Shown here piece after piece: positions 9,852 to 56,388 of a DNA stretch of 64,000 bases. This stretch comes from a virus. A program made the position numbers and the translations under genes. Position 1 is the stretch's first letter; every line of letters begins with the position of its first letter. The notes below the pieces were generated by a model, which made no database searches, was not told the DNA's origin, and saw only the letters and a program-made list of their open reading frames with translations. Location of the stretch: IMG/VR virus record IMGVR_UViG_3300033485_000002, positions 96,001 to 160,000 of that record. One strand, 5' to 3'.

Positions 9852-10076
9852 TTCCTCTCATGCTTCGCACCTATCCTTTTTCTACAGGGTGCGCCCACCT
9901 ACAAGCGTGAGCTTTACTCCGTTTCAACATAGTCCTTGATCTTGACACCCTTGCCCTTTATTGGTGTGGAAAGGGTGCGTTGAGTTCCGGAAAAAGAAAG
10001 GGCAGTAGCCGACCACGGTTAAGGTCGAGGGTTTTGTCCAAGTTATGTAGTAACAAGCTCCTTTATTTCCTGGAGG

Positions 10077-11945
10077 ATGACCGCCAGGATGGCTAAGCGT
10101 CTAACCGAAATTGCCGTAGACCGCATCACCCCGGCTATGGAGAAGACTGTCAAAATGCTTGACCGCATTATGCGGAACAAGGTCAAGAAGTATGGTGCTT
10201 CTCAGCTTGTGACAAAGAGTAAGCGGTTTGGTAAGGATGCCTTTTTCAACGAGTATAAGGGTAGGGTCATTCGTTTAGGCGGGGGCACTGGCCCGACTGT
10301 TCATGTAACTCGTCTTAGAAAGCCAGCTAAGCTGCGTAAGCATAGGGAAATCCCCGGAGGACAGTTTGACGATTTGAACAATGCGGTAACTATCAATCCG
10401 TCAATTTTTCGGGGCAGCCCAGAGTCGTCACAAAATACTATTGCTCATGAGCTATTTCATAGTACAGATCCTGGTGCTTTGATATCAAGAAGTTACAAAT
10501 TAGGGTCAAAGGGGTACTATCAAGACCCTGCGGAAGTCTCAGCCATAGCTGCAACTGGTTCATTAAGAACTGTTCGCCATTTTCATCAAAACGATATACC
10601 TGACAAAGTTGCCAGGATGAAGATTTCCAGTCGGAACCGAGACGATTGGAGAGATCCCCATCTGTGGATGCTAATGCAGAAGAATAGTGGAAGTTCTAAA
10701 GTAGAGAGGAAGATCCGTCAAAAGGTGGGGAAGAACCTTCATCGAGCTTATGAGCGGGTATACCGCCCCGAGACGTATGTGCCTCGGGCGGTTAAACGGG
10801 CGAAGCTGCCCGAGGGGTTGGCTGAAGCCGTTTCCAAGTGGACTCGGCAGGGGTTGCGTCAGAAGTGGAGCATTTCTCCGACTGTTGATACCCATGTTCC
10901 TAATCCGGAATTCGATCAAGTGTTCTCCTTGTGGCAGATGCAGCACCCTCACAAGAAGGTTGTGGGGAATACTTTGAAGATGGCTAACGAACGTCGTGCG
11001 GCTGTGAGTAAACGTAAGAAACTACCGGAGGATATGAACATGCCCGAGCGTGAAGAGCTGTTAGAGCGTGCCCATGCTTTCTTGAACGAGGGACCAGGAG
11101 CCTATGTGAACTCATTGATTGGTATGGCTCCTCATCAGGAGAATCGGGGGCCAACGTATGAGAAAGCCTACAAAACGTACCAGCACCGGGCAAGAAAAGG
11201 AGCGGTGATCGGGGCTGTGACTGGTGCCGCTGCGGGGTTTGCTGGTGGGGCGCTTGCTGGTGGGATAACTGCGCCTTTTGGAGCTGTGGTTGGGGCACTC
11301 GGTGGTGGTGCTGCTGGGAGTGCAATGGGGCAATATTCTGCTTATCGGAAGATAAAAAAAGCTTCTTACCCGAAACCCGTTAAGCCCACTACCGAAGAGC
11401 TTCTCGACCGTGCCGCTGAGTTTTTGAATGAGGTTGTATCTCGGAAGACTAGAGCCGAGTTGAGTGGGCCGTGGGATGAGCCAGAGGGCAATTACTCATC
11501 TCGGGACCATTTGGCATTGTTAGCTAGTAACCCAGGGGACTGGATGGGGTCAAGGGAGCAACAAGCGGCTCAGAACACCTTACAGATGAACAAAGAACGA
11601 ATGGACGCTTATTCTGCTCAGACTGACGCTGCTATTAAGGGTGATTGGTTTAAGGAGCGTCTTTCGGGTAAAACTCGTAAAGAGATAAAGAATGCTTTTA
11701 AACGTTCGGGAGTAGCTTATCCCCATGGACGGCATCCTCGTAAAGATCGTAGAGGTGGTAGTCTTGACACGCTTATGACCCAATGGCGGAAAGAGCATCC
11801 AACGGAAGAGCTATTAACCCAAGCTCGTGCTTTCTTGGATGAAATTGTTGCCCCTCAACCATCTCTTTCGCAAAGGGTGGAACGGGCAAAAAAGAAGGGG
11901 CCATTGGGTCAGATGTTGGACCCCTACGCCCATGTTAAGTTTTAA
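10077..11945 (+). CDS. Modular basic protein, putative internal head/ejected polyprotein (HExxH module, glycine zipper, 3x EELLxRAxxFLxE linker)
   Basis: TIAHELFH; GAVIGAVTGAAAGFAGGALAGG; linkers at ~11052, 11394, 11805. Confidence 0.75.
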   Translation: MTARMAKRLTEIAVDRITPAMEKTVKMLDRIMRNKVKKYGASQLVTKSKRFGKDAFFNEYKGRVIRLGGGTGPTVHVTRLRKPAKLRKHREIPGGQFDDLNNAVTINPSIFRGSPESSQNTIAHELFHSTDPGALISRSYKLGSKGYYQDPAEVSAIAATGSLRTVRHFHQNDIPDKVARMKISSRNRDDWRDPHLWMLMQKNSGSSKVERKIRQKVGKNLHRAYERVYRPETYVPRAVKRAKLPEGLAEAVSKWTRQGLRQKWSISPTVDTHVPNPEFDQVFSLWQMQHPHKKVVGNTLKMANERRAAVSKRKKLPEDMNMPEREELLERAHAFLNEGPGAYVNSLIGMAPHQENRGPTYEKAYKTYQHRARKGAVIGAVTGAAAGFAGGALAGGITAPFGAVVGALGGGAAGSAMGQYSAYRKIKKASYPKPVKPTTEELLDRAAEFLNEVVSRKTRAELSGPWDEPEGNYSSRDHLALLASNPGDWMGSREQQAAQNTLQMNKERMDAYSAQTDAAIKGDWFKERLSGKTRKEIKNAFKRSGVAYPHGRHPRKDRRGGSLDTLMTQWRKEHPTEELLTQARAFLDEIVAPQPSLSQRVERAKKKGPLGQMLDPYAHVKF

Positions 11946-11960
11946 TGAGGTAATAAGAAG

Positions 11961-12557
11961 ATGAACCCGAACATCGTTAGAGCCGCAGTGACTGCCGTGA
12001 AGTCGGGTTCGCATACGCCGAATCATGTGATTGCCCTGCGTAAGGCGCATACCTTCTTGTCGGCTAACAAGTCCCACGCTTGGAACAAAAGTCCCTCACT
12101 CCATCAGGCTTTCAACAAGGTTGGGTTAGGCATAAAGACGGAGAGTGCTATGAGCAAGGATAAGGCATTGTTTGCCCAGGTTGTTAACCATCTGATTGAG
12201 GAAGAGGGCAAGAAGAAAGCCCGTAAGCCTTGGCCGATCCGGCCCAGTGAGTTGAGCGGGATGATCAAAGCCAGCCGTGATAAGAAATGGGGTTATGGGC
12301 TTTCGGTGGCGGTGAACCATCCAGAGGTGGGGCAGGTGACCTTCGACAAGTTCTTCAATAAGCCGAACCAAGTGGGGCACCGGTTGGATACGCGCTCCTT
12401 CAGTGATCAGGAGCGGCTTGTGAACTTTCTCAGACGGTATGGAGTGGAGCCTACGATCAAGGGGCCATCCGCAGGTGGGGAAGCTGCTCCGGTCGGCAAG
12501 AAGACCAAGAAGACCAAGAAGCTGAAGGAAACGCTTGATGAGGACCGCGAGTTCTAA
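11961..12557 (+). CDS. Basic putative internal head protein (VVNHLIEE linker)
   Basis: GAGG SD; C-terminal FSDQERLVNFLRRYGV resembles FANRDKLIAFLGEHGV of next gene. Confidence 0.7.
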   Translation: MNPNIVRAAVTAVKSGSHTPNHVIALRKAHTFLSANKSHAWNKSPSLHQAFNKVGLGIKTESAMSKDKALFAQVVNHLIEEEGKKKARKPWPIRPSELSGMIKASRDKKWGYGLSVAVNHPEVGQVTFDKFFNKPNQVGHRLDTRSFSDQERLVNFLRRYGVEPTIKGPSAGGEAAPVGKKTKKTKKLKETLDEDREF

Positions 12558-12559
12558 GC

Positions 12560-15238
12560 ATGGGCAAGTGGTCGCTTCTTGAGGTTCGAGGCTTCCCGAG
12601 CATCACCGGGGAGGAGCTGTTGCAGCTTGTCCAGGATGCTCGGTTCAGGGGCGGGAACACACTCAGCTTCAGGGTGGACATCGATGACCCGGTCAAGGGT
12701 TTGTTGTCCTTTCGGCGTTTCCTTGGTAACGGTACCAGTCGAGTCGAGATCCGATCTTTTGCTAACCGGGACAAGCTGATCGCGTTCCTCGGTGAGCATG
12801 GCGTACGTTATAACGTACGGCACCATGTACATGAGGATGTGGGCCACACCTTTACCAGACAGGCTACTGGGATTCCTTTCTACGTTAACGGCAACTTTGA
12901 AGTTTGTATCGGAAAGCCGGGGCAGTTCCACGCCACGATGAAGGGCTATGAAGCTGATGAGCGTACCAAGGGCGTGTTCGCCCGTGGTTACTATCATTCG
13001 GCAAGGCCGATTCAGGATGTGCCATCTGCGTTGCAGTGGTGGACAGAACATCTGCATGATGCCGCAACAATGCAGGAGTTAGAGAGAATAGCGACAGAGG
13101 CTTTTGAGAAAAAGGGATACAGGGTGGAAGAGCCTAACTGGTCCAAGTGGTTGAAGAGGCGCAAAGAGCAAGAGTTTGTGGCACTGCGCAGAGCGGGGAA
13201 GGTCATGCAGCGAGAGGGAGCTATCGAACGAGCTGTTGACCAGCTACTCCATGAACATGAAGCAAAATATACCGGTTATTCTCCATTTGGTGGGGGGATT
13301 AGATCTAAAGAAGCACAATCTCATATGAAAAGACTTGGAGGAGAACTTCGTAAGGAGAAGGGGTTATCATATCTTTTATACCCTGAGTATTACGGCCACT
13401 GTGCTCACTGTCGTCAAGATGACAGTAAAATGTGGTTAACGTCGCATAGACAGTGGAGTAAACTTCCTTTAGAACATCGAGATAAAGTGTTATGTGTGAA
13501 TTGTTTTCGCAAATTAAGTAATCTAAAAGAAGTACATGATATTACCCAAAAGGTTTATAGCGAAGCGGTTGACCATTTGCTTGAGGGGGTTCAGGTGACA
13601 TCAGGTCAAGCTCGACGAGTGGCTGAGCGTATCGGGGCGAATAAGGTTGACCTGGAGCAGCTCCGTCGAGGGCTTGAGGTTGAGCAGGAGCACGGGGACA
13701 AGGACAAGCAGACGGATGTGGTCCCTGGCAAAGATGCTAAAAACCTTGACACCTTCGGCAAGATCGCCTTGGCTCACCTGAAAGAGATTCCGGACTACTA
13801 CACCCGGCTCGCCAAGATGGAGAAGGTAGGCAAGAAGGCGGTCAAGGAAGCGGTAGAGCATCTGCTTCGTGAAGATTCTATAGCTGACACTCTTCAGACT
13901 ATGCTTGCGAAACATCGTAGTACAAAGGTTCGGATCAAAAATCGTCCACCGGTACGAGTAGTTGTCCGTCATAAAGCAACATCTAGATCTCTTACAGGGG
14001 CTTATTATCACCCTGGGGAGCAACAGGTATACGTTGGTAAAAAGGGGAAGAAATTTTCGCCTTTTGAGCGAACAATTTTAGCGCATGAGCTGGGACATCA
14101 CCGGAATTGGAGCCATGTCCCACTTTCTCCGCAGGGGAAAATGAAAATGGCATCAACTGCTCAGGCAGCGTACCAAGCTGGGGCGCTTGCAGGTACGGTA
14201 GGAGCGCTTGGTGCAAAGACTGATAAACAGGCGAAGGCAGCGGCGACTATTGGCACGGTGGCGGCATTACCTCGTTATGGGGATGAGGCGTTGGCTAATG
14301 CACGTGCGCTTGGGCGTACTGTAGCGAAACACGGAGCGCGGGGGCTTTTAGCAGGTAAAGCAGGCCCATTACGTGCTGTTGGTGTGAGTATGGCTAGTTA
14401 TAGCATGTTGCCTGCTATGCCTTGGTTAGCTTATGCCCATCGTCGAGCAATTAGAAAGTCGGCAAACTATCATGCTCTTCAATCAAGAACCCGGAAACAA
14501 ATTCAACATGCTGTTCAACATGGGGAGAGCACAAGGCGTTTAGCTAAAAAGTATGATGTGACGCGGCGGTCTGTGCGGGCGATGGGCAAGAGTACTCGGA
14601 CACCTAAGCCATCGTGGCATAGTCATTCTCCTTACTATGGTTATTTTCTTCAAACAGCTAAAAAGCAACGTCATGGGGTCAAGGAAGCGGTAGAGCATCT
14701 GCTTCGTGAAGGCAGGTTCGATTACAAGTCCTCGGTGGGGGTACAGAGTCAGTTTGCCCCGCAGCAGAAGATGACGTTGCAGAGAGCGGTTAACACGAAT
14801 AAGTATTCGGCACCGAAGGCTTCACAGCAAGCGGTTAAGCCGCAGGTATCGAAGCAACAGGAAGTCAAAGAAGCTGCGGATCAGATGCTTGCCGAGGGGT
14901 TCTTCAAAGATATGTTGTTCTACGACCTGTCCCGACATCACCCTCGTGCCGGTAGGCGGGCTGAGCACATGCGTCCAGCGTCTTCAAAGCCTAAGCCAGC
15001 TTATGAGCCTATGGGGCGGTATAACCCGGCTACGGTGTATCCGGAAGGGCACCCGATGCATCCAGGTACGGTGAAGGCTCCTAGCCCGATAGCAACAACG
15101 GCAAGTAGTTCAGCAAAAGCAGGTACGGCAAAGAAGCTTTTTACGCGACGGAGTGCAGCGGTTTTGGCAGTTCCGCTATTAGCTGTAGGCGGCACGAAAG
15201 CGTATGAGGCATGGGCGACTCGTCGTAAGAAAAAGTAG
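12560..15238 (+). CDS. 892-aa modular basic polyprotein: CxxC zinc finger, DUF5661-like domain, HExxH+glycine-zipper module, HTH-like module; 5x EA[VA]xxLLxE-type linker
   Basis: CAHC...CVNC; EQLRRGLEVEQEH...KIALAHLKEIPDYYTRLAKME; TILAHELGH...DEALANARAL. Confidence 0.78.
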   Translation: MGKWSLLEVRGFPSITGEELLQLVQDARFRGGNTLSFRVDIDDPVKGLLSFRRFLGNGTSRVEIRSFANRDKLIAFLGEHGVRYNVRHHVHEDVGHTFTRQATGIPFYVNGNFEVCIGKPGQFHATMKGYEADERTKGVFARGYYHSARPIQDVPSALQWWTEHLHDAATMQELERIATEAFEKKGYRVEEPNWSKWLKRRKEQEFVALRRAGKVMQREGAIERAVDQLLHEHEAKYTGYSPFGGGIRSKEAQSHMKRLGGELRKEKGLSYLLYPEYYGHCAHCRQDDSKMWLTSHRQWSKLPLEHRDKVLCVNCFRKLSNLKEVHDITQKVYSEAVDHLLEGVQVTSGQARRVAERIGANKVDLEQLRRGLEVEQEHGDKDKQTDVVPGKDAKNLDTFGKIALAHLKEIPDYYTRLAKMEKVGKKAVKEAVEHLLREDSIADTLQTMLAKHRSTKVRIKNRPPVRVVVRHKATSRSLTGAYYHPGEQQVYVGKKGKKFSPFERTILAHELGHHRNWSHVPLSPQGKMKMASTAQAAYQAGALAGTVGALGAKTDKQAKAAATIGTVAALPRYGDEALANARALGRTVAKHGARGLLAGKAGPLRAVGVSMASYSMLPAMPWLAYAHRRAIRKSANYHALQSRTRKQIQHAVQHGESTRRLAKKYDVTRRSVRAMGKSTRTPKPSWHSHSPYYGYFLQTAKKQRHGVKEAVEHLLREGRFDYKSSVGVQSQFAPQQKMTLQRAVNTNKYSAPKASQQAVKPQVSKQQEVKEAADQMLAEGFFKDMLFYDLSRHHPRAGRRAEHMRPASSKPKPAYEPMGRYNPATVYPEGHPMHPGTVKAPSPIATTASSSAKAGTAKKLFTRRSAAVLAVPLLAVGGTKAYEAWATRRKKK
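13840..14711 (+). repeat. Perfect 35-bp direct repeat (13840-13874 and 14677-14711) encoding VKEAVEHLLRE
   Basis: GGTCAAGGAAGCGGTAGAGCATCTGCTTCGTGAAG occurs twice in frame. Confidence 0.95.
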
Positions 15239-15295
15239 TTTATCTTGTTGGGACTAGCGATGTAGCTTTATTCTAGGGAGTATAGGAGACTTAAA

Positions 15296-16099
15296 ATGGC
15301 TAAGCAAAAAACTGTATCCTCTAAAGAACATGCAGCGCAAAGTAGAAGGTGGTTAGCCCAAGTTGGAACAGGGGGACTTGGTGGCTATATGGGGGGGCGT
15401 GCTATTGGGTCTGCTATCCCTACTAGTAGTATGACTGCGAAAGCTGCACTTATGACTGCTGGTGGAGTTGGTGGGGCAGTTGGTGGGTATTATGCTGCCA
15501 AATCTCATTTAGGACAGGACTTAAAGCAAATGGAGCGAAGTCCTAATAAGCCAAAGGCAGCTAAAGCTTTTGCTGCTAATCATCCGGTTGCAGCGGTAAT
15601 GATCCTGCCGAAGAATAAGTTTCAACAGCAAAAGTTAGCTTCTCGTGGTACTGGTGGGCACATAGGGCATGCTCTCCTCCGAAATATGGGGGGCGGCCCA
15701 ATGAATATTATCCGGTATGGGGCAAAATCCCATTACGCTAAAGCCGGATATTATCGAGAGGAAGATATGCTTAGAGATGAGCTGATTGAGCAGATTCTAG
15801 TAGCTGCTTTAGACGAAGGTAAGCTCCAGGATCTCGATCAAGCGCTTCATCGTCAGCGGAAGTTTAAGAGCAGGGGGCTTCAGAAGGCTGACAAGTTCTT
15901 ACACCGCCGCCCAGCACAGGATGTTGGACGAGCTGCCCGTCGTGTGAAGCGTGTTGCTAGTGGTGCGGCGCATAAGGCTGTCCGTGGGCTGAAACGAACG
16001 GATCGTAAGCTGCACCGTTCTTATCAATTTAAGAATAAGGGATTGAAGAAGGTGGACAGGTTCCTGCATCGGAAGATTGCCGAGGCTGAACTTGCATGA
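15296..16099 (+). CDS. Basic glycine-zipper protein with C-terminal [GK]LxxxDxxLHR repeats; putative internal head protein
   Basis: AGGAG SD; VGTGGLGGYMGG..AGGVGGAVGG; RDELIEQILVAALDE linker. Confidence 0.7.
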   Translation: MAKQKTVSSKEHAAQSRRWLAQVGTGGLGGYMGGRAIGSAIPTSSMTAKAALMTAGGVGGAVGGYYAAKSHLGQDLKQMERSPNKPKAAKAFAANHPVAAVMILPKNKFQQQKLASRGTGGHIGHALLRNMGGGPMNIIRYGAKSHYAKAGYYREEDMLRDELIEQILVAALDEGKLQDLDQALHRQRKFKSRGLQKADKFLHRRPAQDVGRAARRVKRVASGAAHKAVRGLKRTDRKLHRSYQFKNKGLKKVDRFLHRKIAEAELA

Positions 16100-16158
16100 G
16101 CGGTAAAGAGTAGTATATTACCTTTTGAAGGTAAGGCAGGTGGGTGTTGGCACAACTG

Positions 16159-16209
16159 CCACCCCGGCCCCCCATATCACCAACACGGGGACCGGGGCCT
16201 TCTTTTTTT
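16159..16209 (+). terminator. Probable terminator hairpin before tRNA-Gln
   Basis: CCCCGG(C)CCC...GGGGACCGGGG followed by TCTTTTTTT. Confidence 0.5.
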
Positions 16210-16281
16210 AGGGGCATGGTGTAATCGGTAGCACGCAACACTTTGGATGTTGTGGTTGGGGTTCAAGTCCCTGTGCCCCTG
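16210..16281 (+). tRNA. tRNA-Gln(TTG)
   Basis: Acceptor AGGGGCA/TGCCCCT, anticodon arm CAACA-CTTTGGA-TGTTG, T-loop GTTCAAGT, G discriminator. Confidence 0.88.
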
Positions 16282-16310
16282 TTTCGGATTTAGTGTGGGG
16301 GTCTTTTACT

Positions 16311-16514
16311 ATGGAAAGTGGCAAGATGCTTTACCTTCTTGTGCAACGCACGGAAGTTCTTCATGGGCATAATGATATCTACGCTGGTGTTTTCGAACTG
16401 CGCTCAGATGCGGAAGCGGCTATTGCCCAACAACCTATCAACTTGCGTTGGCAGTTCGTGATCTATCCGGTCATGTTTAAGCGGCTACGTACTCCGGAGT
16501 ATTCGCCTCCGTAG
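16311..16514 (+). CDS. Hypothetical protein
   Basis: ORF track; IYAGVF...AEAAI motif of small phage proteins. Confidence 0.55.
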   Translation: MESGKMLYLLVQRTEVLHGHNDIYAGVFELRSDAEAAIAQQPINLRWQFVIYPVMFKRLRTPEYSPP

Positions 16515-16534
16515 TCTTTATTGCATGGGGTGGG

Positions 16535-16729
16535 ATGACCAGTTTACTGTACCTCGGGGCGCTGTTGTTGCTGCTGCTGGTCTGTATCGCTGTCACGAAT
16601 ACCCGCTCCAGTGTTCGTTGCCCTGCTTGTGGGACAATGATGCGGCGGATGGCGAATGCTGGATGGGGCATGACGCTGTATATCTGTCCTATTTGCAAGA
16701 AGTACTTCTATGAAGACGAGGTTGGATAG
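16535..16729 (+). CDS. Membrane-anchored zinc-ribbon protein
   Basis: N-terminal TM helix; CPACG...CPIC. Confidence 0.6.
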   Translation: MTSLLYLGALLLLLLVCIAVTNTRSSVRCPACGTMMRRMANAGWGMTLYICPICKKYFYEDEVG

Positions 16730-16745
16730 TTGCGGTTGCACGGGC

Positions 16746-16774
16746 TTGACAAAGATGCTCACGTCATCTACGAT
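16746..16774 (+). promoter_or_regulatory. Sigma70-type promoter
   Basis: TTGACA-17 bp-TACGAT. Confidence 0.65.
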
Positions 16775-16863
16775 TTAGGGGTCATGGGGATGCCCGTTAA
16801 CGCAGCTAAGAGACCTTGAACCGGCCCGCCGTCAGGCGGGTCTTATCATGAAAGGATGACATT

Positions 16864-17223
16864 ATGAATGTTTATGTGTTGTTTGCGCAACGGAAAGAAC
16901 GTTTCCCTGGGCAGTACGCCCCGGAAGCCTTGGCAGTGGTGGACGAGTACGTGTTGAACGATGACGGGGTCTCTCTCGAAGAGATTCAGAAGCGCACGCT
17001 CGAACAGGACAACCCGGATGACTTCGTGTCGGTGAAGTGGGTGATGGTGAAGCTGACGGCTACTCCCGCTGATATCCGGGAGATGTTGGTCGGCATGCCG
17101 ACTATCACGGGGGATGTGCCGGTGCCCCCGGAGCACAAAGGGAACCACCCCTCCTATCAGGGGATGACCGTGACTCAGGGGCGCAAGGGCGGAAAGATCG
17201 AAGATTCCGAGATCATTGACTAG
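16864..17223 (+). CDS. Hypothetical phage protein
   Basis: AAGGA SD; VLFAQRKERFPGQYAPEALAVVDEY. Confidence 0.7.
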   Translation: MNVYVLFAQRKERFPGQYAPEALAVVDEYVLNDDGVSLEEIQKRTLEQDNPDDFVSVKWVMVKLTATPADIREMLVGMPTITGDVPVPPEHKGNHPSYQGMTVTQGRKGGKIEDSEIID

Positions 17224-17231
17224 GTATCGCT

Positions 17232-17534
17232 ATGGCACAGTATCGACGATATGGCTATGTGACGACTGTTCGGGTTGAAAGAGATGGGGAATTGGTCGAG
17301 GATGCAAACATTGCATTTGACCTCAATCCGGGCTTAGCGAACGATAAGCTTGATGCCGTCATCAACAACCGAGTGCATGCAGATGCACACAATAAAGTAC
17401 TCGAAAATAACATACTTAAGCCTAATGGCGATCTTCAAGGCCAGGAGATTCGTACCGTCTTAATTCGATGTGCGGATGGTGTGACCCTCCGGTTTTCCAT
17501 CCAGAGATGGTACGTGGTTGTCGGGAGGGAGTAA
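17232..17534 (+). CDS. Hypothetical protein
   Basis: ORF track, operon-like spacing. Confidence 0.6.
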   Translation: MAQYRRYGYVTTVRVERDGELVEDANIAFDLNPGLANDKLDAVINNRVHADAHNKVLENNILKPNGDLQGQEIRTVLIRCADGVTLRFSIQRWYVVVGRE

Positions 17535-17538
17535 CACC

Positions 17539-17934
17539 ATGGGGAGCGGGTACTATGAGAGTGCTTTGCTACGCCTCCGCCGCATCGTGACGTATCTGAA
17601 CGCGAGGTACAATGATGTTTTCGAGGGGCAAGACATCACGCCAACTCAATTCGAAATTCTCCTGTTCGTCGAATCCAATGCGCCATGCAGCGTGTCTGCC
17701 ATAGCGGAGTTCATGCTCGTGGATAAGTCTACCTCGTCGCGAGTTCTCGGGGGCATCCAGGACAAAGGGCTGGTTCAGATAGAGCGGGATACGGTGGACC
17801 GTCGCCGGAATCGAGTGAGTCTGACCCATATGGGGCAGGATGCCGTCACGAGCTTCAAAGCTGCATGGTTCGAGGTGGAAAAGGGCGTCAAGGGCCAGTA
17901 CGATAAGGCAATTGAGCATTTGGAACGTTTCTGA
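17539..17934 (+). CDS. MarR-family winged-helix transcription regulator
   Basis: ITPTQFEILLFV...SVSAIAEFMLVDKSTSSRVL..IQDKGLV....DTVDRRRNRVSLT..G. Confidence 0.9.
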   Translation: MGSGYYESALLRLRRIVTYLNARYNDVFEGQDITPTQFEILLFVESNAPCSVSAIAEFMLVDKSTSSRVLGGIQDKGLVQIERDTVDRRRNRVSLTHMGQDAVTSFKAAWFEVEKGVKGQYDKAIEHLERF

Positions 17935-17950
17935 CCGATAGGAGGCTACT

Positions 17951-18175
17951 GTGTCCGTACCGATTGATGTGGTATTCGAGAAGCAGGTGGATAATCATTG
18001 GCAACCAGTTCGGAGCGCAGAGTTACGGCCAGGGGACATAGCCAGGATGCGGATGCTCAGTGGCGAGGTTCTACGGGATGACGCAGGGCGGGAGACGTTT
18101 CAAGTAGCCGGGGTGAATGGTCGGGATCCAGATTCTAAGTCACAATTCGATGTCAGTCTCGAACCAATGGTATAG
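17951..18175 (+). CDS. Hypothetical protein
   Basis: AGGAGG SD, GTG start. Confidence 0.6.
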   Translation: MSVPIDVVFEKQVDNHWQPVRSAELRPGDIARMRMLSGEVLRDDAGRETFQVAGVNGRDPDSKSQFDVSLEPMV

Positions 18176-18183
18176 GGGGCACA

Positions 18184-18438
18184 ATGGTAGTTGATCCAAT
18201 AGAGCGTATCCGGGAGCTGTATGGGGACGAAATAGCTGAACGGATGCAGGTGTTCGCTGAGCGTGCTGAAAAAGAGAAGGCTGTAAAAGGTGCCTCGTTC
18301 TCGATTGACCCTCGCCCCATCTTTGTAATCATGACAACAACGGCTCTTTTGTGGGGTAAAGATCCTCGGCAAATACTTACCGCTGAAGTGTACGGTAAGG
18401 TGATGGACCTCATGAATATGTTCTTCAAAGATAAGTAA
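18184..18438 (+). CDS. Hypothetical protein
   Basis: ORF track, followed by terminator. Confidence 0.6.
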   Translation: MVVDPIERIRELYGDEIAERMQVFAERAEKEKAVKGASFSIDPRPIFVIMTTTALLWGKDPRQILTAEVYGKVMDLMNMFFKDK

Positions 18439-18460
18439 CCACTCCCAAGATGGGATTTAG

Positions 18461-18492
18461 GGCCGAGTCTTTTGACTCGGCTTCTTTATTTT
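18461..18492 (+). terminator. Rho-independent terminator overlapping a CTTTATT motif
   Basis: GCCGAGTC-tttt-GACTCGGC then TTCTTTATTTT. Confidence 0.7.
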
Positions 18493-18512
18493 GCGATGGG
18501 AGGCGGCTTTAG

Positions 18513-19961
18513 ATGTCTCTGACCAAAGATGAGCTGCTTGCTTATGTTAGGAATCGTCAGCGGCCAGGGCATCGAGCCGCCGTGTTGAAGAAATATCAGT
18601 CAATGGCACTTTCACCTGCGATGTTGGAACGGGGGAAGAAAGCTAAAGAAGTGGCTGATAAACTTCGTGATAACGTTTTAGTCCGTGCTGCTGTGAAGAA
18701 AACATTTGAAACTGGAGAAGAAGATATGCCCATGAATAGGCTAGATGAGCTACATTTCGATTTAACTAAAACGCGCCAAAGAGAACGGTTAGTTCGTGGC
18801 TCAAGTGATGCTCAAGATGCCTATAAGCGGCGTTATAAGGTAGCCCGAGTCGGACAGGCTGCAACACGACTTGCTGCTCATACGGGAGTAGGATTAGCGG
18901 TTGGGGGTACTGTTGGTGGCCCAATTGGGGCAACTATTGGCGGCGGGCTTGGGTTAGCGTCGGGACTTCATTCAATTAAGTACCCGAGTATGCATCTGAT
19001 GAAACTGCGGCATAAGTATGCGTTGAAGAAGGGGCTTCGGGATGTGAAAAAGAGTGAGAGGCTCCAGCGATGGGGTGAGCGTCGAATGGAAAAGTTTCGG
19101 CGGCAGGGAGAGCGGCAGCAGGCTATTCAGAATTATAAGCGAGAATTTCGTGAGGGGTTGTATGAAGCTCCGATTGTGACTGGACCTGCTGCTGCGGCAA
19201 TTTCTGCTCTTGAGCGGAGTGTTGCTAAGAAAGGCGCTGCCTCGGCTGTTCAGAAAGTTGGTAGACTTGCTGCGGCTAAGAATAAGTTTTTAGCCTCGAA
19301 GTTTGGGCAGTCAAAGTACGTACAGTCGAGTCTTCCGCGTCTTAAGAAGACAGGTGAGTTTTTCGGTGATGTTCGGCATATGCCTAAAACCGCTCGGGAT
19401 CTTGTGTTTGCCCCGAAAGGACCGAAGGGGTTTCGTAGTGGTCTTGCAAAGCGGTTAGGAAGACAGGCGCTGGCCGGTGAGGTGATGCTGACTGGTGGAG
19501 TTATGGCCCATCATAAGATTAAAAAGATGGCCGATCAACATTACGCTCATAAGGCGTATCAGCAGCAAGCAGAGTCTGATGAGTTGTTTAACGCAATTGT
19601 GCCAGGGTTAGATCTGCAAGAATTAGCTATGCGCCGAGACTTGATCAATGAGGCTTGGGGTGCAGCTATCGGTGGTGCTGTTAAGTCTGCTGGTAGTTGG
19701 CTTGGTAGGTCAACGGGTGTGTTTACTGGTGCTGCAAATGTTGTAAGATCAGGTGGTATTAAGGACGTTATGAGAGCACGTGGTATGGCAAAAATTAACC
19801 ACCCGATAGCTGGCCGAGTAAGACAAATTGGTTTAAATAAGATGGCTCCTGGTTTGGCACAGATTAAAGGTGGTTTGGCTCCTGCGGCTACGATAGCTGG
19901 AGCTGCGGGGGCTTATAAACTTGGTCAGCGATCTGGTCGTCGATCGCAGCAAAACTACTGA
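18513..19961 (+). CDS. Modular basic glycine-zipper protein; putative internal head polyprotein
   Basis: GGAGG SD; GVGLAVGGTVGGPIGATIGGGLG; L/I-x-E junctions (NRLDE, GLYE, DLINE). Confidence 0.72.
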   Translation: MSLTKDELLAYVRNRQRPGHRAAVLKKYQSMALSPAMLERGKKAKEVADKLRDNVLVRAAVKKTFETGEEDMPMNRLDELHFDLTKTRQRERLVRGSSDAQDAYKRRYKVARVGQAATRLAAHTGVGLAVGGTVGGPIGATIGGGLGLASGLHSIKYPSMHLMKLRHKYALKKGLRDVKKSERLQRWGERRMEKFRRQGERQQAIQNYKREFREGLYEAPIVTGPAAAAISALERSVAKKGAASAVQKVGRLAAAKNKFLASKFGQSKYVQSSLPRLKKTGEFFGDVRHMPKTARDLVFAPKGPKGFRSGLAKRLGRQALAGEVMLTGGVMAHHKIKKMADQHYAHKAYQQQAESDELFNAIVPGLDLQELAMRRDLINEAWGAAIGGAVKSAGSWLGRSTGVFTGAANVVRSGGIKDVMRARGMAKINHPIAGRVRQIGLNKMAPGLAQIKGGLAPAATIAGAAGAYKLGQRSGRRSQQNY

Positions 19962-19990
19962 AACTAAAGAGATAAGGAGTGAGGTGAACT

Positions 19991-20401
19991 ATGACTCATG
20001 AGGAAATGCGGCAGGAACTGATCGAGGCGATTATTGACGAGGCCCTCAAGGACAAGGCCAAGGCAGCGGCTGGTTGGGTTGGCAGTAAGGCTAAGGCTGG
20101 CGCAAAGGGTGTTGGCCGTGGGGCTAAGTGGGTTAGTCGTAAGACTGGCGCAACTGCTGCCGGTAAGTGGCTTGGTAGCTCCAAGGAAGCGTGGAAGGGA
20201 GCAAAGGGCCTGCGGCGAGCGCGTAAGATGGCGAAGCTTGGTCACCCGGTAGCAGGGGAAGTCCGAGCGGCTGCGATTAAGGCGCTGCGGAAGGGTGCTC
20301 CTCCTGCGGCTGTAGCATCGATGCTTGGTGCCGGTGCTGTTGCTGGTGGGTATGCTGGTGGCAAGAGCCTGCTCCGTCGTCGGCGCGAGGGTAAGTCCTA
20401 G
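19991..20401 (+). CDS. Small basic Ala/Gly/Lys-rich protein with acidic N-terminal leader
   Basis: MTHEEMRQELIEAIIDE then basic body similar to C-terminal module of 18513 gene (HP[IV]AG.VR). Confidence 0.72.
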   Translation: MTHEEMRQELIEAIIDEALKDKAKAAAGWVGSKAKAGAKGVGRGAKWVSRKTGATAAGKWLGSSKEAWKGAKGLRRARKMAKLGHPVAGEVRAAAIKALRKGAPPAAVASMLGAGAVAGGYAGGKSLLRRRREGKS

Positions 20402-20405
20402 TCAC

Positions 20406-21116
20406 ATGGCTTTCTCGTCTTCCACTACCCCAGAGGCGACGTGGAAGCGCATGAAGCGTCACATCGCCAAAAGTGCTCGTCGTCTCGGTAAACGGGGCGA
20501 CGAGTACCGGCGTTATGTCTACGGCGCGTTGAGAGCCAGGGGTTGGAAGCCGAAGCGGGAACGAGTGCATGAGAATGAGCATGCTCGGGTACGTCAAGAT
20601 ATTGACACCGATTATGCTCATCATGCATTGAGGGGTAGCCGGAATCGGGACTTCAAGCACATTGAAAATAGGCGGCGAGGTGTGGTGAAGTTCTCGGTAG
20701 CTACAGAGGGACTTTTAGCTCGGGCTGACCATTGGTTGAACGAAGTGTACGGTGTAGATATTGTTCCTACTTTCCCTCCTGAACCATTAGCGGGGAAGCT
20801 TGCTAAAAACCTTACAAAAAAAGTGCATAAAGAGTTACAGCGTGAAGCTTTTTCTCCTACGCGAAATGTAAAGCGAGCTTTGAGATATCGCCGTAAGGCC
20901 CTGAAAATTAGAAAAACAAATGCCCCTAGAGCAGAAACAATGTTACGTCGAGCGAACGCGGTGTTAAAAAACCGGGTGCCAACATTGGCTGTTACAGGAG
21001 CTGGTTGGGTAGCGGGGCCAGGGTTTGGCACAGGGGAAGTTATGGCCGCGAGTGCTGCAAAAGGAATGAATCGCTACACACGAATGAGACGTGCTCGTTT
21101 TATGAGACGTAAGTAG
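20406..21116 (+). CDS. Modular basic protein with TEGLLARADHWLNE linker
   Basis: GAGG SD, ATG 20406; linker homologous to those in 10077 gene. Confidence 0.7.
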   Translation: MAFSSSTTPEATWKRMKRHIAKSARRLGKRGDEYRRYVYGALRARGWKPKRERVHENEHARVRQDIDTDYAHHALRGSRNRDFKHIENRRRGVVKFSVATEGLLARADHWLNEVYGVDIVPTFPPEPLAGKLAKNLTKKVHKELQREAFSPTRNVKRALRYRRKALKIRKTNAPRAETMLRRANAVLKNRVPTLAVTGAGWVAGPGFGTGEVMAASAAKGMNRYTRMRRARFMRRK

Positions 21117-23593: not shown

Positions 23594-24214
23594 ATGAGTA
23601 CACGTCTTTTTTGTCGCTTCCTCATCCTCGTAATTTTGCTCGTAACCTCTCCCGTGTTCGGGCAGTTCTGGGAGGTCACGCCGACACCAACGACACCCAT
23701 ATGGTGGCAGACCCCTACTGCTACCAAAACCCCCACCCCACGGCTCACCAATACTCCCACCCGTCCGCCTTCCACAACTCCCCCGACTCGGACACCAACG
23801 AGAACGCCAACGAGAACGCCAACGAGAACACCTACAAGAACGTCAATAATGACGCCCACAATAACTCCGACACCAACAATAACTCCGACACCAACCCCGT
23901 ATCCATGCAACTCCGAAGTAACTTTCAATGCTGCACCCGAAGGTACCGTACACGTCATGGAGTGGTACAAAGCAACCGGGAGCGCACCGTATCCTACTGC
24001 CCCTAGTGGATACGGTTTTGCGTTCCCGGTTGTCCTAGATCGACATCGGGTACGGGTTCAATATATTGGACGTTACCAACATGAAATAGCCCCCGGAGTC
24101 CTGTACACAGATGAACAGGACTTCGTGCTTTTCACAAAATGCCCAGTAGGCTTTATTTTTGGAGATGGTTTCGAGTCTGGTACAACGTCTGCGTGGTCTA
24201 CGACTAACCCGTAA
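23594..24214 (+). CDS. Secreted protein: signal peptide, Pro/Thr linker, C-terminal IFGDGFESGTTSAWS motif
   Basis: MSTRLFCRFLILVILLVTSPVFG; (TPTR)n; terminal motif. Confidence 0.75.
   Translation: MSTRLFCRFLILVILLVTSPVFGQFWEVTPTPTTPIWWQTPTATKTPTPRLTNTPTRPPSTTPPTRTPTRTPTRTPTRTPTRTSIMTPTITPTPTITPTPTPYPCNSEVTFNAAPEGTVHVMEWYKATGSAPYPTAPSGYGFAFPVVLDRHRVRVQYIGRYQHEIAPGVLYTDEQDFVLFTKCPVGFIFGDGFESGTTSAWSTTNP
23683..23900 (+). repeat. Low-complexity 12-bp coding repeats (CCAACGAGAACG-like) of the PT linker
   Basis: Tandem ccaacgagaacg and acaataactccgacacca units. Confidence 0.8.
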
Positions 24215-48129: not shown

Positions 48130-48180
48130 TATTGGAACAATGCTTTATTGGAGTGACTCGTAAGAGTTGGAGGTTTGATT

Positions 48181-48531
48181 ATGAGCTTTCGTGATGAGGT
48201 GGCCACATATATCGAGCAGATGCTTGTCGAGGGGGTTCTTCCGGATTCCGACTTTGTGTTGGAGATGGAAGTCCCTGGTCAACAGCCTGGACCGCAAGCG
48301 AGTGGTGATGAGGGTGGGCCGAAGAGTGCTCCATCGGCCACTTTTCCGTGGATGGGGTCAGATCGCCCTCCGGTATTTAATGCCCCTGGACGAGTGATCC
48401 CCCCGGCAGCGTTTTCACAGCAGAACGCTCAGCATCCTCCGGCCATGTTCAGCGGAGCGTCTCAGGGCATGAAGGAAGAGGCGATTGCTGCTGTCCTGGC
48501 TGACCTGGAAGCTCTTCAGGCTGATGAATAG
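48181..48531 (+). CDS. Acidic/Pro-rich hypothetical head-region protein
   Basis: GGAGG SD; IEQMLVE leader. Confidence 0.65.
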   Translation: MSFRDEVATYIEQMLVEGVLPDSDFVLEMEVPGQQPGPQASGDEGGPKSAPSATFPWMGSDRPPVFNAPGRVIPPAAFSQQNAQHPPAMFSGASQGMKEEAIAAVLADLEALQADE

Positions 48532-52737: not shown

Positions 52738-53112
52738 ATGGACTTTCTACACATATTAGACGAATTTATCGAAGATACCTTGACCTCGGGGTTCACCGAG
52801 GAACAGATCGCGAAGATGCTTTTGGAGGAAGACCGTTTACTCCAAGAAGGGGATAAGTTCCTCCCGATCATTGAAGCAGTTCATCGTGTTCGGCGTACGA
52901 TTAGTGGGGTTCGAATTACTACTCGTAAATTTGGGCGGAAAGATCCTCGGCGCTCTCAGCTTATGAAACGTGTTGCACGGACACATCGAGCAAGTCGATT
53001 GATGGCAGCACGGAAATATCAGCGTTCTCCCAAGGCTAAGAGAGTACGGCGTATTGTGATGCAACGACGACGGACAATGCACCCTATGCCTTCTCGTTAC
53101 GGGCGGCGGTGA
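52738..53112 (+). CDS. Prohead core protein, T4 gp68-like architecture
   Basis: Acidic N-half with L/I-x-E sites (MLLEE, LLQE, IIE), Arg/Lys-rich C-half; downstream of portal. Confidence 0.6.
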   Translation: MDFLHILDEFIEDTLTSGFTEEQIAKMLLEEDRLLQEGDKFLPIIEAVHRVRRTISGVRITTRKFGRKDPRRSQLMKRVARTHRASRLMAARKYQRSPKAKRVRRIVMQRRRTMHPMPSRYGRR

Positions 53113-53115
53113 AGC

Positions 53116-56100
53116 ATGTTTGGACCGTACGCCAATCTCGAAGAGCTGTTGGAGGCTACAAAAACTCCTCCGACAGGGCAAGCAGCAGCAAAAGTCATTG
53201 CGCCTTTCGCTAAGAACAGTAAGCCTAAGATGAATTGGAAACCTTTCGATACTATCGAGGTTTACAAGAAGTTTAGAGAAGCTTACACCCAGGATGAAGA
53301 TCAACTTCGTTCTATCGCTAAGAACAATTTTGTCGCGAAGGCTATATTACAGGCATTTTTAGTCCAGGAGTTTCCATTAAAAGTTTACGTACAGGGAATT
53401 CCTGATGGTAATATGCCTGAGCAAATTTCACGACAATTTGCGTTTGCCTTAACTCGCCAAACATACGAAAAGGTCATTACTTCAGCTATCAGTAGGGGGC
53501 ATTTGGTCCGCTACTTTTATGTCTATCTTGTTGGTGGTTTAGACCGTGCTGCATGGGATACTATTGTAAACCAAGTTTGGACACGGTGTGAAGAATTTAT
53601 TGCGAACAAGTCGAGTAAGGAAACCGTTGCACACTATCTCAAGGAAATAACCTCAGATATTAAGTCTAAGTATTGGAAAGAGCAGATCTTAGGGGTTATC
53701 AAATACCGTGTCCATGAAGCATCTACTCCGGGAGGGCATGCCCCTACCGAGTTGGTTCTGACTGTTGAGCACGAAGACCCCCCGTTCGAGTACGCTAGCG
53801 GTGAGCGTAGGAACGCTTTAACTGCCAGTGACTATCAACACCTAATGCAGACTCCGATCAGGAGCAATCAACCAGATGTTCGGCTTGCGTTACACAAGCT
53901 CTATACCGCCTATGCTTGGGATCTTTTTGACGAGTTTGTGAAAAGAGAGGCCACAGGCCCAGAAAAACTCATTGGGAGTTTGCTCAAACAAGCTCCTTTA
54001 CGCCATCAATATGACGCTGTAGTTCATCCAGATAGAAAGCGTGTAGCTCCTCCGGGTGAAATGAAGAGAGATACGGGGGAACATCCTTTTCGAGGATTTG
54101 CTGAGGGGAGAAGTAAGGTAGTCGGTTCGATCAAAAGTAGTGAGTATCGTTTCGATACTGTAACGGCAGATCCTGCGTACCGAGCATGGTTACAGTCAGA
54201 CGGCTCAGTCAAGAAACCGGAGAAACAACCGGTAGACCAGCGTGATTTTAACACCTTTTTCCCTGTGGCACCGGTTGCTCCGTTATTGGAAAATGCTCAT
54301 TACAAGATTACATTCGGTATCCATTATGACAATCCACTATTGAGTAGGGATTCACGGGGCCAAACTTATTGGTATGCGAATCGGAGTCAGTTTCTTCAAG
54401 CAGCATACCAATACGCGGTAATGACCGGAGATCGGCCTACTATCGCCTTTTTCATTACTAGTAAGCTTGGTAGTAACGCAAACGAAATCATGTCCGAAAA
54501 TGAACTTAGCAAGCATCATGCAGGACCAGAAGCTAGGGATATTATCAAGCAAAAAGATGATCTTGTCCTGGCTTTCTGGCGGCATGCAGATCAGGGACAA
54601 CGAGCTTTCCCAATTCTTATTGCAAAATGGTTCGGTGTCTCTCCGGACAAGTATGTAGTCCCTTACAACCCGAATAAGGACGTACCGGAGAATATCGACC
54701 CGGCTGACTGGCACAAGTATCGGGCATGGGTGCAGAAAACTGCCAGTACCAAACTCGGGTTGAACTTGTCGTCACTGCACGACATGTCGGCCAAAGACAA
54801 AGAGACGATGCTCAAGCTTCAACAGCACCCACCGGGGCGGGATCATATCGCGGGTGCTATGGCGTTGAATCGGACTCGTAAGTTCACAGGTGAGCGGGAT
54901 GAGAAAGGTAACCCGATTGAACCGTGGGGGGTCTATCTCATTCAGTACGCGCTGGCATACGGGATGTCAGATGCGGCAGCTACGCCAACGTTTATGGTTC
55001 CGATCAATGTGATCAAGTCCACCAAGGGAACTATCCCTCCTCATCGGACACTTACGAAGGTTCTTCGTAACGATTTGGAGAAGCTGTTACGGACTCATTG
55101 GCCGGATTACAAGGTCACGAACCCGAGATACTCTACGGGGAAGCGTGCGCCACTGTCAGATTGGAAGTTCATTGCGGGTAACCCGGCGCTGCCGTTTCCT
55201 TACCCTCGGTTAGTTCGGCCTCTTCCTCTGGCCGATGCTGAAGTTCGGGATAAGCTCAATGCTAAGTACCCGAATAACGTTCGCCGCACAACCCATGGCT
55301 TTCAGATTGACGGTGTCACGTACGATGCTTTCGTGATGCTTGTGGCGATGCCGCCATCTGTTGTAGAGAAGGAGTTCAACCTTCTGAAACGGGATGGAAC
55401 TGCCCGTCAACTCATCTCCGATCCTACAATGTTGAGCCGATTGAAGGGAGCTGGTAGCCCTAGAGAGATGTTAAAGCGGGTTAAAAGTAAGGGGCTGCCT
55501 GATGAGCATCCAGAGAATATTAAGGGGGAAGGCACTCTCAAGCAGATGGGGCTGATGCCTCGTTCTATGGGAGTGCAGTTCATGACGAACCCGTACGAGA
55601 AAGCCTCTCAAGAGGTAGATCCGTTCAAGTTATTGAACATGGAGAAAGCGACTCCGCTTGGTCCAGAATATTACTTATCCCAGATCGGTGAACGGTGGAA
55701 ACCAAAGATTACGACGATCCTTACGGATGCGGGAAACGTAGCTTACCGGGCTGTGACTGGATTTGAGCACGAACAAAGCCCGGAGAAGCGTAAGGAGATG
55801 TACGCTAATTGGTTGAAGGCAGTGGCTTTGAACATGGAGAAGTCCGAAGACGCTTTAACCCAGCTCTTAAAGGATGTCGTAGCCGCCGTAGACTTAGAGC
55901 ACCGTACGACGGGTTCGGATATGGCACGGCGTCAACAACTCTATTTGGACTATGTGCGCCGGGAGACGGCAGCAGGTGGAGCGTACAAGGAACCGCAGCT
56001 TATCTACAAGATTAAGATGACTGAGTTCCAGGCTCCGATCGGGTCTACAGGATTTCGGAATATCTTCTTGACGATCAAGGCTCCTTCGGAAGATATCGCC

Positions 56101-56388
56101 AAGCTGATGATCCTGTATCGGCTGCTCCGTCGTTCAGTGTTGAATAAGGAGCTGGGTAAGCAGATGTTGGCGATTTCACCGTTTACCCGGCAACGGGTTT
56201 TCCCTGATCTCAACGCTCGTTTGTTGGCACAGTGGGCAGCGGCTCATTTTATCGTGATCGCACATGAAGGGCCAAAGGGAACTCGATTCCAGCCACCACG
56301 GCACCATCCTACTACTCGTGAGTATGCGGCTCAACGTGCAGCGGTTGGGGGCGAGCATCGGTTTGCCCGGATGCTTGGGTTCAAATAA
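53116..56388 (+). CDS. 1090-aa unknown head-region protein with LEELLEA leader (internal/ejected candidate)
   Basis: ORF track; no family recognised. Confidence 0.7.
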   Translation: MFGPYANLEELLEATKTPPTGQAAAKVIAPFAKNSKPKMNWKPFDTIEVYKKFREAYTQDEDQLRSIAKNNFVAKAILQAFLVQEFPLKVYVQGIPDGNMPEQISRQFAFALTRQTYEKVITSAISRGHLVRYFYVYLVGGLDRAAWDTIVNQVWTRCEEFIANKSSKETVAHYLKEITSDIKSKYWKEQILGVIKYRVHEASTPGGHAPTELVLTVEHEDPPFEYASGERRNALTASDYQHLMQTPIRSNQPDVRLALHKLYTAYAWDLFDEFVKREATGPEKLIGSLLKQAPLRHQYDAVVHPDRKRVAPPGEMKRDTGEHPFRGFAEGRSKVVGSIKSSEYRFDTVTADPAYRAWLQSDGSVKKPEKQPVDQRDFNTFFPVAPVAPLLENAHYKITFGIHYDNPLLSRDSRGQTYWYANRSQFLQAAYQYAVMTGDRPTIAFFITSKLGSNANEIMSENELSKHHAGPEARDIIKQKDDLVLAFWRHADQGQRAFPILIAKWFGVSPDKYVVPYNPNKDVPENIDPADWHKYRAWVQKTASTKLGLNLSSLHDMSAKDKETMLKLQQHPPGRDHIAGAMALNRTRKFTGERDEKGNPIEPWGVYLIQYALAYGMSDAAATPTFMVPINVIKSTKGTIPPHRTLTKVLRNDLEKLLRTHWPDYKVTNPRYSTGKRAPLSDWKFIAGNPALPFPYPRLVRPLPLADAEVRDKLNAKYPNNVRRTTHGFQIDGVTYDAFVMLVAMPPSVVEKEFNLLKRDGTARQLISDPTMLSRLKGAGSPREMLKRVKSKGLPDEHPENIKGEGTLKQMGLMPRSMGVQFMTNPYEKASQEVDPFKLLNMEKATPLGPEYYLSQIGERWKPKITTILTDAGNVAYRAVTGFEHEQSPEKRKEMYANWLKAVALNMEKSEDALTQLLKDVVAAVDLEHRTTGSDMARRQQLYLDYVRRETAAGGAYKEPQLIYKIKMTEFQAPIGSTGFRNIFLTIKAPSEDIAKLMILYRLLRRSVLNKELGKQMLAISPFTRQRVFPDLNARLLAQWAAAHFIVIAHEGPKGTRFQPPRHHPTTREYAAQRAAVGGEHRFARMLGFK

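Follow-up and report, generated by a model that had tools for sequence, protein, structure and literature searches.

Basic modular proteins joined at [LIV]-x-E sites as putative polyprotein head cargo of a distant T4-like phage

The capsid-targeting sequence (CTS) of bacteriophage T4 is a textbook case in phage assembly and underlies tools for packaging and delivering proteins; to our knowledge, it has been described only at the N-terminus, as a tag of single proteins. Here, we describe seven genes, designated p1–p7, at positions 10077–21116 of a 64,000-nucleotide stretch of viral DNA (the window; bases 96001–160000 of the 168,260-bp uncultured virus contig held as IMG/VR record IMGVR_UViG_3300033485_000002, CheckV completeness 77%). 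These genes probably encode head-internal cargo of a distant T4-like phage, made in polyprotein form and processed by a prohead protease of the S77 family. Coordinates are those of the window unless the genome, meaning the whole contig, is named, and an arrow marks a predicted cut.

The T4 internal proteins carry N-terminal CTSs of 10–19 residues, and the T4 prohead protease gp21 cleaves after the Glu of L/I-X-E; in the IPIII tag, targeting depends on residues 4 and 7 and processing on residues 8 and 10 (PMC9026906). The T4 tag sequence reads MKTYQEFIAE (PMC8442874). Removal of the CTS by gp21 is described for IPI, IPII, IPIII and Alt in a passage of PMC9026906 that cites Mullaney and Black 1996. 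Two further systems bear comparison. In the giant phages phiKZ, 201phi2-1 and SPN3US, a diverged homologue of gp21 makes cuts after Glu in many proteins of the head interior (PMC5694885, PMC9026906). The polyvalent proteins of Iyer, Burroughs, Anand, de Souza and Aravind (2017) are multi-domain phage and plasmid proteins with a zincin-like HExxH...E hub, which is proposed to free the other domains (PMC5512222).

The head genes of the contig are of T4 type. Its portal protein is a distant gp20 (PHROG 213, E 4e-41) whose best cultured matches, ~30% identical, are those of Flavobacterium phage immuto, Microcystis phage Mel-JY01 and Rhodothermus phage RM378. A Glu-specific prohead protease, the absence of which would have refuted the original prediction, is indicated just outside the window: a Peptidase_S77 match (PF03420, E 3e-20, above the Pfam cut-off) at genome 160468–160872, ~470 bp past the window end, inside a 531-residue open reading frame (ORF) at genome 160366–161961 (L001:1399–2994) that starts ~370 bp past the same point. 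The domain aligns to T4 gp21 (5JBL, E 6e-9) and keeps the GELDHP and SSRG motifs; the crystallised T4 gp21 chain has Ala at precisely the His and Ser positions of these motifs, which we read as inactivating substitutions. The C-terminal 350 residues of the ORF have a pI of 4.05, a net charge of −67 and 14 [LI]-x-E sites; from this extreme acidity and these sites, we take the ORF to be a protease–scaffold fusion. Directly after it comes a gp23-type major capsid protein (MCP) gene (E 1e-68); the mature N-terminus of T4 gp23* aligns at about residue 37 of this MCP, and the L-x-E sites E41 and E52 flank it. Judged by its gp20-type portal, gp21-type protease and gp23-type capsid, the phage that carries the cluster is a distant T4-like one.

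Searching IMG/VR with the MCP as query yielded ten related contigs at 77–88% identity, and the S77 protease is present in 5/5 sister records searched, in the same scaffold fusion (ORFs of 493–546 residues). Related-locus searches of IMG/VR with p3, p1, the alignments A1 and A2 and a flanking 562-residue protein returned no match; only the MCP query recovered sister phages, the cluster proteins being far more divergent than the capsid. A scan of one JGI metagenome added two records: L004, a short but true relative, and L003, an unrelated phage.

All seven ORFs named in the original prediction lie on the plus strand and are strongly basic (pI 10.06–11.59 at a proteome median of 5.8), with a K+R content of 17–25% and a summed net charge of +271. 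The helices that were said to recur in them, four of type A, six of type B and two of type C (15773 and 20009), were all recovered in place; a third, degenerate type C copy in p5 (19632) is added here, giving 13 in total, every one of which ends in [LI]-x-E. A pattern search over a rough whole-genome proteome, in line with the proteome-wide linker search proposed earlier, found the three helix types only in this cluster, at an expectation of ~0.003 occurrences per pattern in a shuffled proteome. Across the seven proteins, [LI]-x-E occurs 31 times (15.8 ± 3.7 in their shuffles), and 17 of these sites fall inside helices. The conserved stretch of the helix spans 10–13 residues. All three types place hydrophobic residues at P7, P4 and P3, counted back from the predicted cut, with the same spacing as the T4 tag. 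A pooled 12-position matrix built from the 13 helix ends scored 17.7–30.7 bits in the cluster and at most 15.5 bits in the rest of the proteome. Among the better matches outside the cluster are the N-terminus of a 118-residue ORF (48175), the E52 site of the MCP and the C-terminus of the scaffold, which agrees weakly with the idea that all are protease substrates.

The helices partition the seven proteins into modules. The 622-residue p1 protein (10077–11945, pI 10.2) begins with a candidate leader that ends in L-T-E at residue 11, continues with an HExxH-containing module, a glycine-zipper module (residues 374–423) and two more modules, and has type A helices at 11052–11090 (EELLERAHAFLNE↓G), 11394–11432 (EELLDRAAEFLNE↓V) and 11805–11843 (EELLTQARAFLDE↓I). 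In p2 (11961–12557, 198 residues), an N-terminal module (residues 1–60) that is common to many metagenomic relatives precedes a type B helix (12177–12203, QVVNHLIEE↓E) and a module resembling the N-terminus of p3. The largest protein, p3 (12560–15238, 892 residues), opens with an 8-residue leader candidate, MGKWSLLE↓V, and strings together six modules on five type B helices: ERAVDQLLHE↓H (13226–13255), EAVDHLLE↓G (13562–13585), EAVEHLLRE↓D (13847–13873), EAVEHLLRE↓G (14684–14710) and EAADQMLAE↓G (14870–14896). Its modules are, in order, an N-terminal one; a Cys4 zinc-ribbon-like one; DUF5661 (13586–13846, Pfam E 9e-15), flanked exactly by helices 2 and 3; an HExGH module (13874–14683, motif at 14084–14098) with a Gly/Ala-rich helical hairpin and a small helix-turn-helix (HTH)-like end; a 62-residue module; and, at the C-terminus, a module with a hydrophobic tail. 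The p4 protein (15296–16099, 267 residues) comprises a glycine-zipper module, a type C helix (15773–15817) and a C-terminal module of pI 11.7, and p5 (18513–19961, 482 residues) has a glycine-zipper-containing N-terminal part, the degenerate type C helix (19632–19661, MRRDLINE↓A) and a C-terminal module paralogous to p6. The single-module form is represented by p6 itself (19991–20401, 136 residues, pI 11.1), in which a 17-residue N-terminal type C leader (19991–20041) ending in I-D-E↓A precedes a basic body of +25. Finally, p7 (20406–21116, 236 residues, pI 11.6) consists of sub-modules a (residues 1–56), b (57–113, closed by a type A helix at 20706–20744) and c (114–236), with joints VHE↓N and LNE↓V. 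The modules had been called unrelated, which does not hold for two paralogous pairs, p5 residues 382–473 with the p6 protein (E 7e-10) and p2 residues 116–167 with p3 residues 39–87 (E 2e-4).

The evidence that these segments are separable units comes from metagenomic relatives. An exhaustive phmmer search with p3 of 1.8 billion representatives returned no full-length relative; the matches fall on three separate modules, namely DUF5661 (~1000 relatives, most of them stand-alone small proteins), the HExGH module (stand-alone homologues P0005, P0032, P0072 and P0087) and the C-terminal module. Eight of the 149 other matches listed are themselves very basic and bear the same kinds of helices. Modules that are apart in our cluster are combined in such relatives: the N-terminal p2 module with DUF5661 and the last p3 module in P0002 and P0003, with DUF5661 and the first p7 module in P0008, and with the last p3 module in P0142. 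We cut p1–p7 at the helix ends and ran the pieces by BLAST. Homology to the last p3 module opens at query residue 1–2 in all four relatives that have it (P0002, P0003, P0100 and P0142), and in each the module directly follows an [LI]-x-E of its own; in two of the four, the helix has decayed so far that ISE↓G and LKE↓G are what is left of it. The p7 family tells the same story in four relatives of 35–49% identity, which carry the a, b and c sub-modules in varied order: beside a-b-A-c of p7 itself, we found a-b-A-c-c', a-c-b-A-c', a-A-c-c' and, behind a six-residue leader, b-A-c. An [LV]-x-E stands before each of its nine homology-defined module starts, and the upstream contexts are of six kinds (VHE↓N; LNE↓V with LDE↓M; VTE↓V; LQE↓V; LKE↓S; MSCLSE↓N), which brings the joints preceded by [LIV]-x-E to 13 of 13. 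Because [LIV]-x-E has a density of only 1.4% per residue in p7-family proteins, the probability of at least eight independent coincidences by chance is below 1e-11.

Modules cut out at the helices thus behave as independent evolutionary units, which, to judge by these alignments, have been duplicated, deleted, permuted and recombined. Several joints in relatives have no helix and consist of a bare [LIV]-x-E (VTE↓V, LQE↓V, LKE↓S and ISE↓G), and since all p7-family starts follow [LV]-x-E, what is conserved at a joint is the P1 Glu and an aliphatic P3, with the helix optional. This pattern is the hallmark of a site cleaved with the specificity on record for the gp21 family. It does not support the original prediction as worded, which had made each linker a packaging and cleavage tag; given the bare joints, the helix is not required at every joint. 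In 50,697 phage records, tblastn matched neither p1 nor p5, and p3 gave a weak DUF5661 match and no other; word-indexed homology searches with the HExxH and type A regions of p1 returned nothing, or only the query itself.

An unfused counterpart of the cluster is found in a sister phage, G002 (176 kb), which has the S77 protease and an MCP 81% identical to that of our phage. Homologues (34–57% identity) of the window ORFs 5944/6748, of the 16864–18184 block and of ORF 21126 bracket two variable slots in G002, the content of which is entirely different from that of our genome. (The contig of another sister record, G001, stops at the edge of the region and was left out of this comparison.) The G002 slots hold seven small genes with near-identical type C leaders of 12–14 residues (MTREELIEAIVE↓ and close variants) that end in [IVLT]-x-E, in front of basic bodies of +11 to +64 net charge. 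One of these bodies is the last p3 module, which in our phage stands behind the internal type B helix 5, and another is the p7 'a' module. The genes of the first slot are closely packed: except at one gap of ~770 nt, the spacing between neighbours ranges from an ATGA start/stop overlap to 11 nt. No further basic-bodied ORF with such a leader was found in the 176-kb record; an extra leader match at 169379 has an acidic body. Between two of the leader-bearing genes, the frames of L021:7890–8430 translate like tRNA-gene sequence (e.g., GFEPRT), so that tRNA genes are probably interspersed in this slot. On sequence grounds, the G002 slots follow the T4 IPI/IPII/IPIII design of one tag, many bodies and a variable locus.

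Traces of the unfused state may persist in our phage. All three type C copies in the window (15767, 19632 and 19991) keep a Met 2–3 residues before the conserved Arg, as do several relatives, which fits an origin of the polyproteins by fusion of leader-plus-body genes. The retained Mets may alternatively be internal translation starts; a GAGGA lies 4 nt upstream of the type C Met in p4, and none does in p5.

With the fused and unfused states side by side, we can ask whether the helices are cut at all. They might instead be conserved amphipathic interaction or spacer elements that dock to the scaffold, to the portal or to each other within intact virion proteins. Such a role would account for a conserved part (10–13 residues) much longer than a 3-residue protease motif, and helix-like copies without the final Glu do stand at the extreme C-termini of P0002, P0142, P0004 and the upstream ORF of L004. 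These Glu-less copies suggest that the helix has a role by itself, as a targeting function would also predict; the Glu, however, is lost only where nothing downstream remains to be released. Where the helix has decayed, it is the bare [LIV]-x-E that is kept before the module start (ISE↓G, LKE↓G, VTE↓V, LQE↓V and LKE↓S), and a spacer is hard to see in a helix that also serves as N-terminal leader on seven unrelated small proteins of G002. We therefore regard uncut helices as unlikely, albeit as the least unlikely of the alternatives to processed head cargo.

Hints of what the modules might do come from a few motifs. DUF5661 is the only Pfam family found in the cluster proteins. Its AlphaFold model, with a predicted local distance difference test (pLDDT) score of 90.5, is a five-helix bundle in which the invariant E..EH and H...E.PDYY (E33, E35, H36, H64 and D70-Y71-Y72) possibly form a metal or ligand site; Foldseek returned no PDB match for it (best E 2.2). 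DUF5661 also adjoins capsid genes in sister phages and in L003. HExxH motifs are present in p1 (HELFH) and p3 (HELGH), and suggest peptidase activity for the two modules.

These motifs raise the prospect that the proteins are polyvalent proteins that process themselves, before packaging or after injection, with embedded zincin-like modules in the manner proposed for the polyvalent hub. The p3 module does pair its invariant HExGH with an invariant Glu ~65 residues downstream in all five homologues, and the p1 module has M78/IrrE, ArdC-type and LPD-bearing clusters (LPD23, LPD39) among its Atlas neighbours, although these are weak and distant matches at a template-modelling score of ~0.3. Like the polyvalent proteins, which have two to 15 domains, p3 is composed of separately distributed modules (six) and has structural genes downstream; HExxH modules occur in 2/7 proteins, and in both cases the chains are expected to travel with the DNA and to be separated into units. 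Against self-processing, five of the seven proteins, and all p7- and p2-family relatives with clean joints, are without an HExxH module, which leaves their joints unaccounted for; a Pfam scan of the cluster proteins at E ≤ 1 found no peptidase, effector or LPD family; and descriptions of the polyvalent proteins, in whose model the embedded zincins do the cutting, mention no conserved linker or motif at the cut site. A fold search with the p3 module returned generic helical hairpins and a small HTH but no zincin, and is uninformative at the quality of the model (pLDDT 60, active-site region below 55). A P1 Glu with an aliphatic P3 is a documented specificity of the S77 family, and we know of no zincin that shares it. 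Self-processing by zincins accordingly appears very improbable to us, and S77-processed cargo remains the reading we favour.

A different objection concerns location. Glycine-zipper hairpins occur in p1, p4, p5, p6 and p7, and fibre or baseplate-like structural genes follow closely downstream of the cluster. The proteins could thus be late membrane-active, nucleoid-binding or tail-internal proteins and not head cargo, with joints that are recombination scars of module exchange. The type B pair 13847/14684, which shares 34 identical bases and looks like a recent duplication or conversion, is what such scars would resemble. The other helix copies, however, have diverged at synonymous sites, and selection has therefore acted on the peptide and not on the DNA. 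Scars would also leave unexplained the strict P1 Glu and a leader common to seven genes, and the combination of common leader, basic body and S77 protease is the signature of T4 head cargo. We give this explanation as little credence as self-processing. Within the head-cargo reading, the same hairpins suggest membrane activity after ejection for some fragments.

The arrangement of the cluster and of its surroundings can be summarized from the plus strand. The heptamer CTTTATT stands at 10061–10067, 16 nt upstream of the p1 start, at 15266, 30 nt before p4, and at 18484, 29 nt before p5; more copies are found in the window at 24151, 40419, 41285 and 48143 and at genome positions 2301 and 28754. 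Genome-wide, 15 copies are on the plus strand versus four on the minus strand, and 8/15 lie within 60 nt upstream of a plus-strand start, often at 13–43 nt, including the starts of structural-looking genes and of an NHL-repeat structural ORF. We regard CTTTATT as a candidate late-promoter element of this lineage. The T4 late promoter TATAAATA is absent from the window. Sigma-70-like boxes precede the non-basic block between p4 and p5, with TTGACA upstream of 16864. Taken together, the promoter-like elements offer modest support for late co-expression of the cluster with structural genes.

The non-basic block (16100–18512), which is conserved, splits the cluster and contains a tRNA-Gln (16209–16282), small acidic ORFs and a MarR-like HTH protein (17518–17934). 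It is syntenic in G002, and in L004, too, a cluster-type gene precedes the first gene of the block. Elsewhere in the window, a 124-residue ORF (52738–53112) between the portal region and a 1090-residue ORF has an acidic N-terminal part of 45 residues with several [LI]-x-E and, after it, an extremely basic tail (pI 11.6), which makes it an internal-protein candidate outside the cluster. The 1090-residue ORF (53116–56388), near the portal gene, has the leader-like N-terminus MFGPYANLEELLE↓ATK, and the 118-residue ORF (48175–48531), ~1.1 kb upstream of the portal gene, begins with the leader-like MIMSFRDEVATYIEQMLVE↓GV, the top N-terminal matrix score outside the cluster. Two large ORFs at genome 26.5–33.8 kb had been suspected as members of the system, and neither shows the helices; one of them, with NHL repeats, is probably a fibre or baseplate protein. 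In the unrelated phage L003 (L003:1–2376), the first ORF of the head block has a large insertion with a Cys start and homing-endonuclease-like sequence, which may be an intein in a portal-like gene.

Taken together, a model for the cluster emerges. The basic precursors would be made together with the structural proteins and enter the core of the assembling prohead, probably through the short acidic amphipathic helices by analogy with the T4 CTS, and attraction of the very basic modules to the very acidic scaffold may assist their entry. The scaffold-fused gp21-type serine protease would then cut after the Glu of each [LIV]-x-E joint, yielding ~19–20 basic fragments of ~30–380 residues that would stay with the DNA and be ejected along with it. 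The polyproteins themselves would have arisen by in-frame fusion of tandem leader-plus-body genes, in which a stop codon was lost and the leader became a linker; since every unit carries a cut site of its own, the joints would tolerate fusion, fission and shuffling. Co-expression, packaging, cleavage, ejection and fragment function are steps that we infer from sequence. The original idea of a polyprotein version of the T4 internal-protein locus survives in its core, sustained by the S77 protease, the [LI]-x-E ends, the edges of the homology blocks and the unfused state in G002; the tag role at every linker is not supported. More tentatively, and giving the proposal slightly less than an even chance, we suggest that the helices are portable cassettes of address and cut site, with which tandem head-cargo genes can fuse, split, duplicate and permute at will, that internal tags suffice for targeting and that a T4-like phage can thereby evolve a changeable arsenal of many injected proteins and load it from a single transcript or polypeptide. 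Such a polyprotein strategy would be one that has not been described for tailed phages.

Several observations count against processed head cargo. The proteins p2, p4, p5 and p7 have no N-terminal leader, only internal helix copies, and their route into the head is consequently unexplained unless internal helices target; the targeting role of the helices is argued by likeness to the T4 CTS. An N-terminal [LI]-x-E is widespread (41 ORFs of the proteome) and by itself not diagnostic. The pooled helix matrix fails to generalise, scoring 9/18 relatives with some of the matches inside DUF5661, and it gives no evidence for a helix in every family member. The glycine-zipper segments resemble tape-measure proteins (PHROG matches, E 2e-5) as well as c-ring-like hairpins, and a tail or membrane location of these proteins may follow from that. 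Co-occurrence of the S77 protease with joint-bearing cargo was seen in the two genomes checked, ours and G002. The phage is uncultured, with the system known from sequence alone, and the cleavage specificity of its S77 protease is assumed from T4. Giant-phage gp21 homologues favour S/A/G at P3 (PMC5694885, PMC9026906). The inner-body and ejection proteins of those phages are like ours in being cut after Glu, at several sites per precursor; their motif is S/A/G-x-E, whereas P3 is L, I or V at every joint here, and their multiple cuts fall mostly within long discarded propeptides, whereas ours would fall between retained modules. Repeated helix linkers or shuffling at joints are not described for them.

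How far does the likeness to T4 reach? As with the T4 internal proteins, small very basic proteins accompany a gp21-family protease, a gp20 portal and a gp23 capsid protein; a short acidic N-terminal leader ending in [LI]-x-E is attached to unrelated bodies (p6 and the seven G002 genes); the hydrophobic P7/P4/P3 spacing is that of MKTYQEFIAE; and the content of the locus varies between close relatives. We found no homology to T4 IPI, IPII, IPIII or Alt or to their CTSs, and no internal-protein family among the Pfam and PHROG matches of the cluster proteins; the relation is an analogy of design inside a homologous head-assembly machinery. Unlike in T4, there are three types of helix, mostly internal, which join up to six modules in chains as long as 892 residues; a single precursor would give rise to several products, with the helix left on the C-terminus of the upstream fragment; and the protease is fused to the scaffold.

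Individually, the gp21-type protease, a leader of CTS type, basic internal proteins and the variability of the locus are all known. The new element, as read from these sequences, is an internal repeated tag that joins up to six retained modules, in three helix types and with free shuffling at the joints; in the searchable literature, we found no description of CTS-type tags used internally and repeatedly to join retained modules. With the fused state here and the unfused one in G002, a few recombinant proteins would suffice to put the hypothesis to a direct test. If a tag of this kind does act as a repeated joint inside proteins, basic modules with [LIV]-x-E joints and an S77 protease would provide a rule for finding such cargo in metagenomes, and several proteins might be loaded into a capsid from one construct. 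For the phages themselves, a joint of this kind would explain how the injected proteins of T4-like phages, probably including counter-defence factors, diversify by cassette shuffling.

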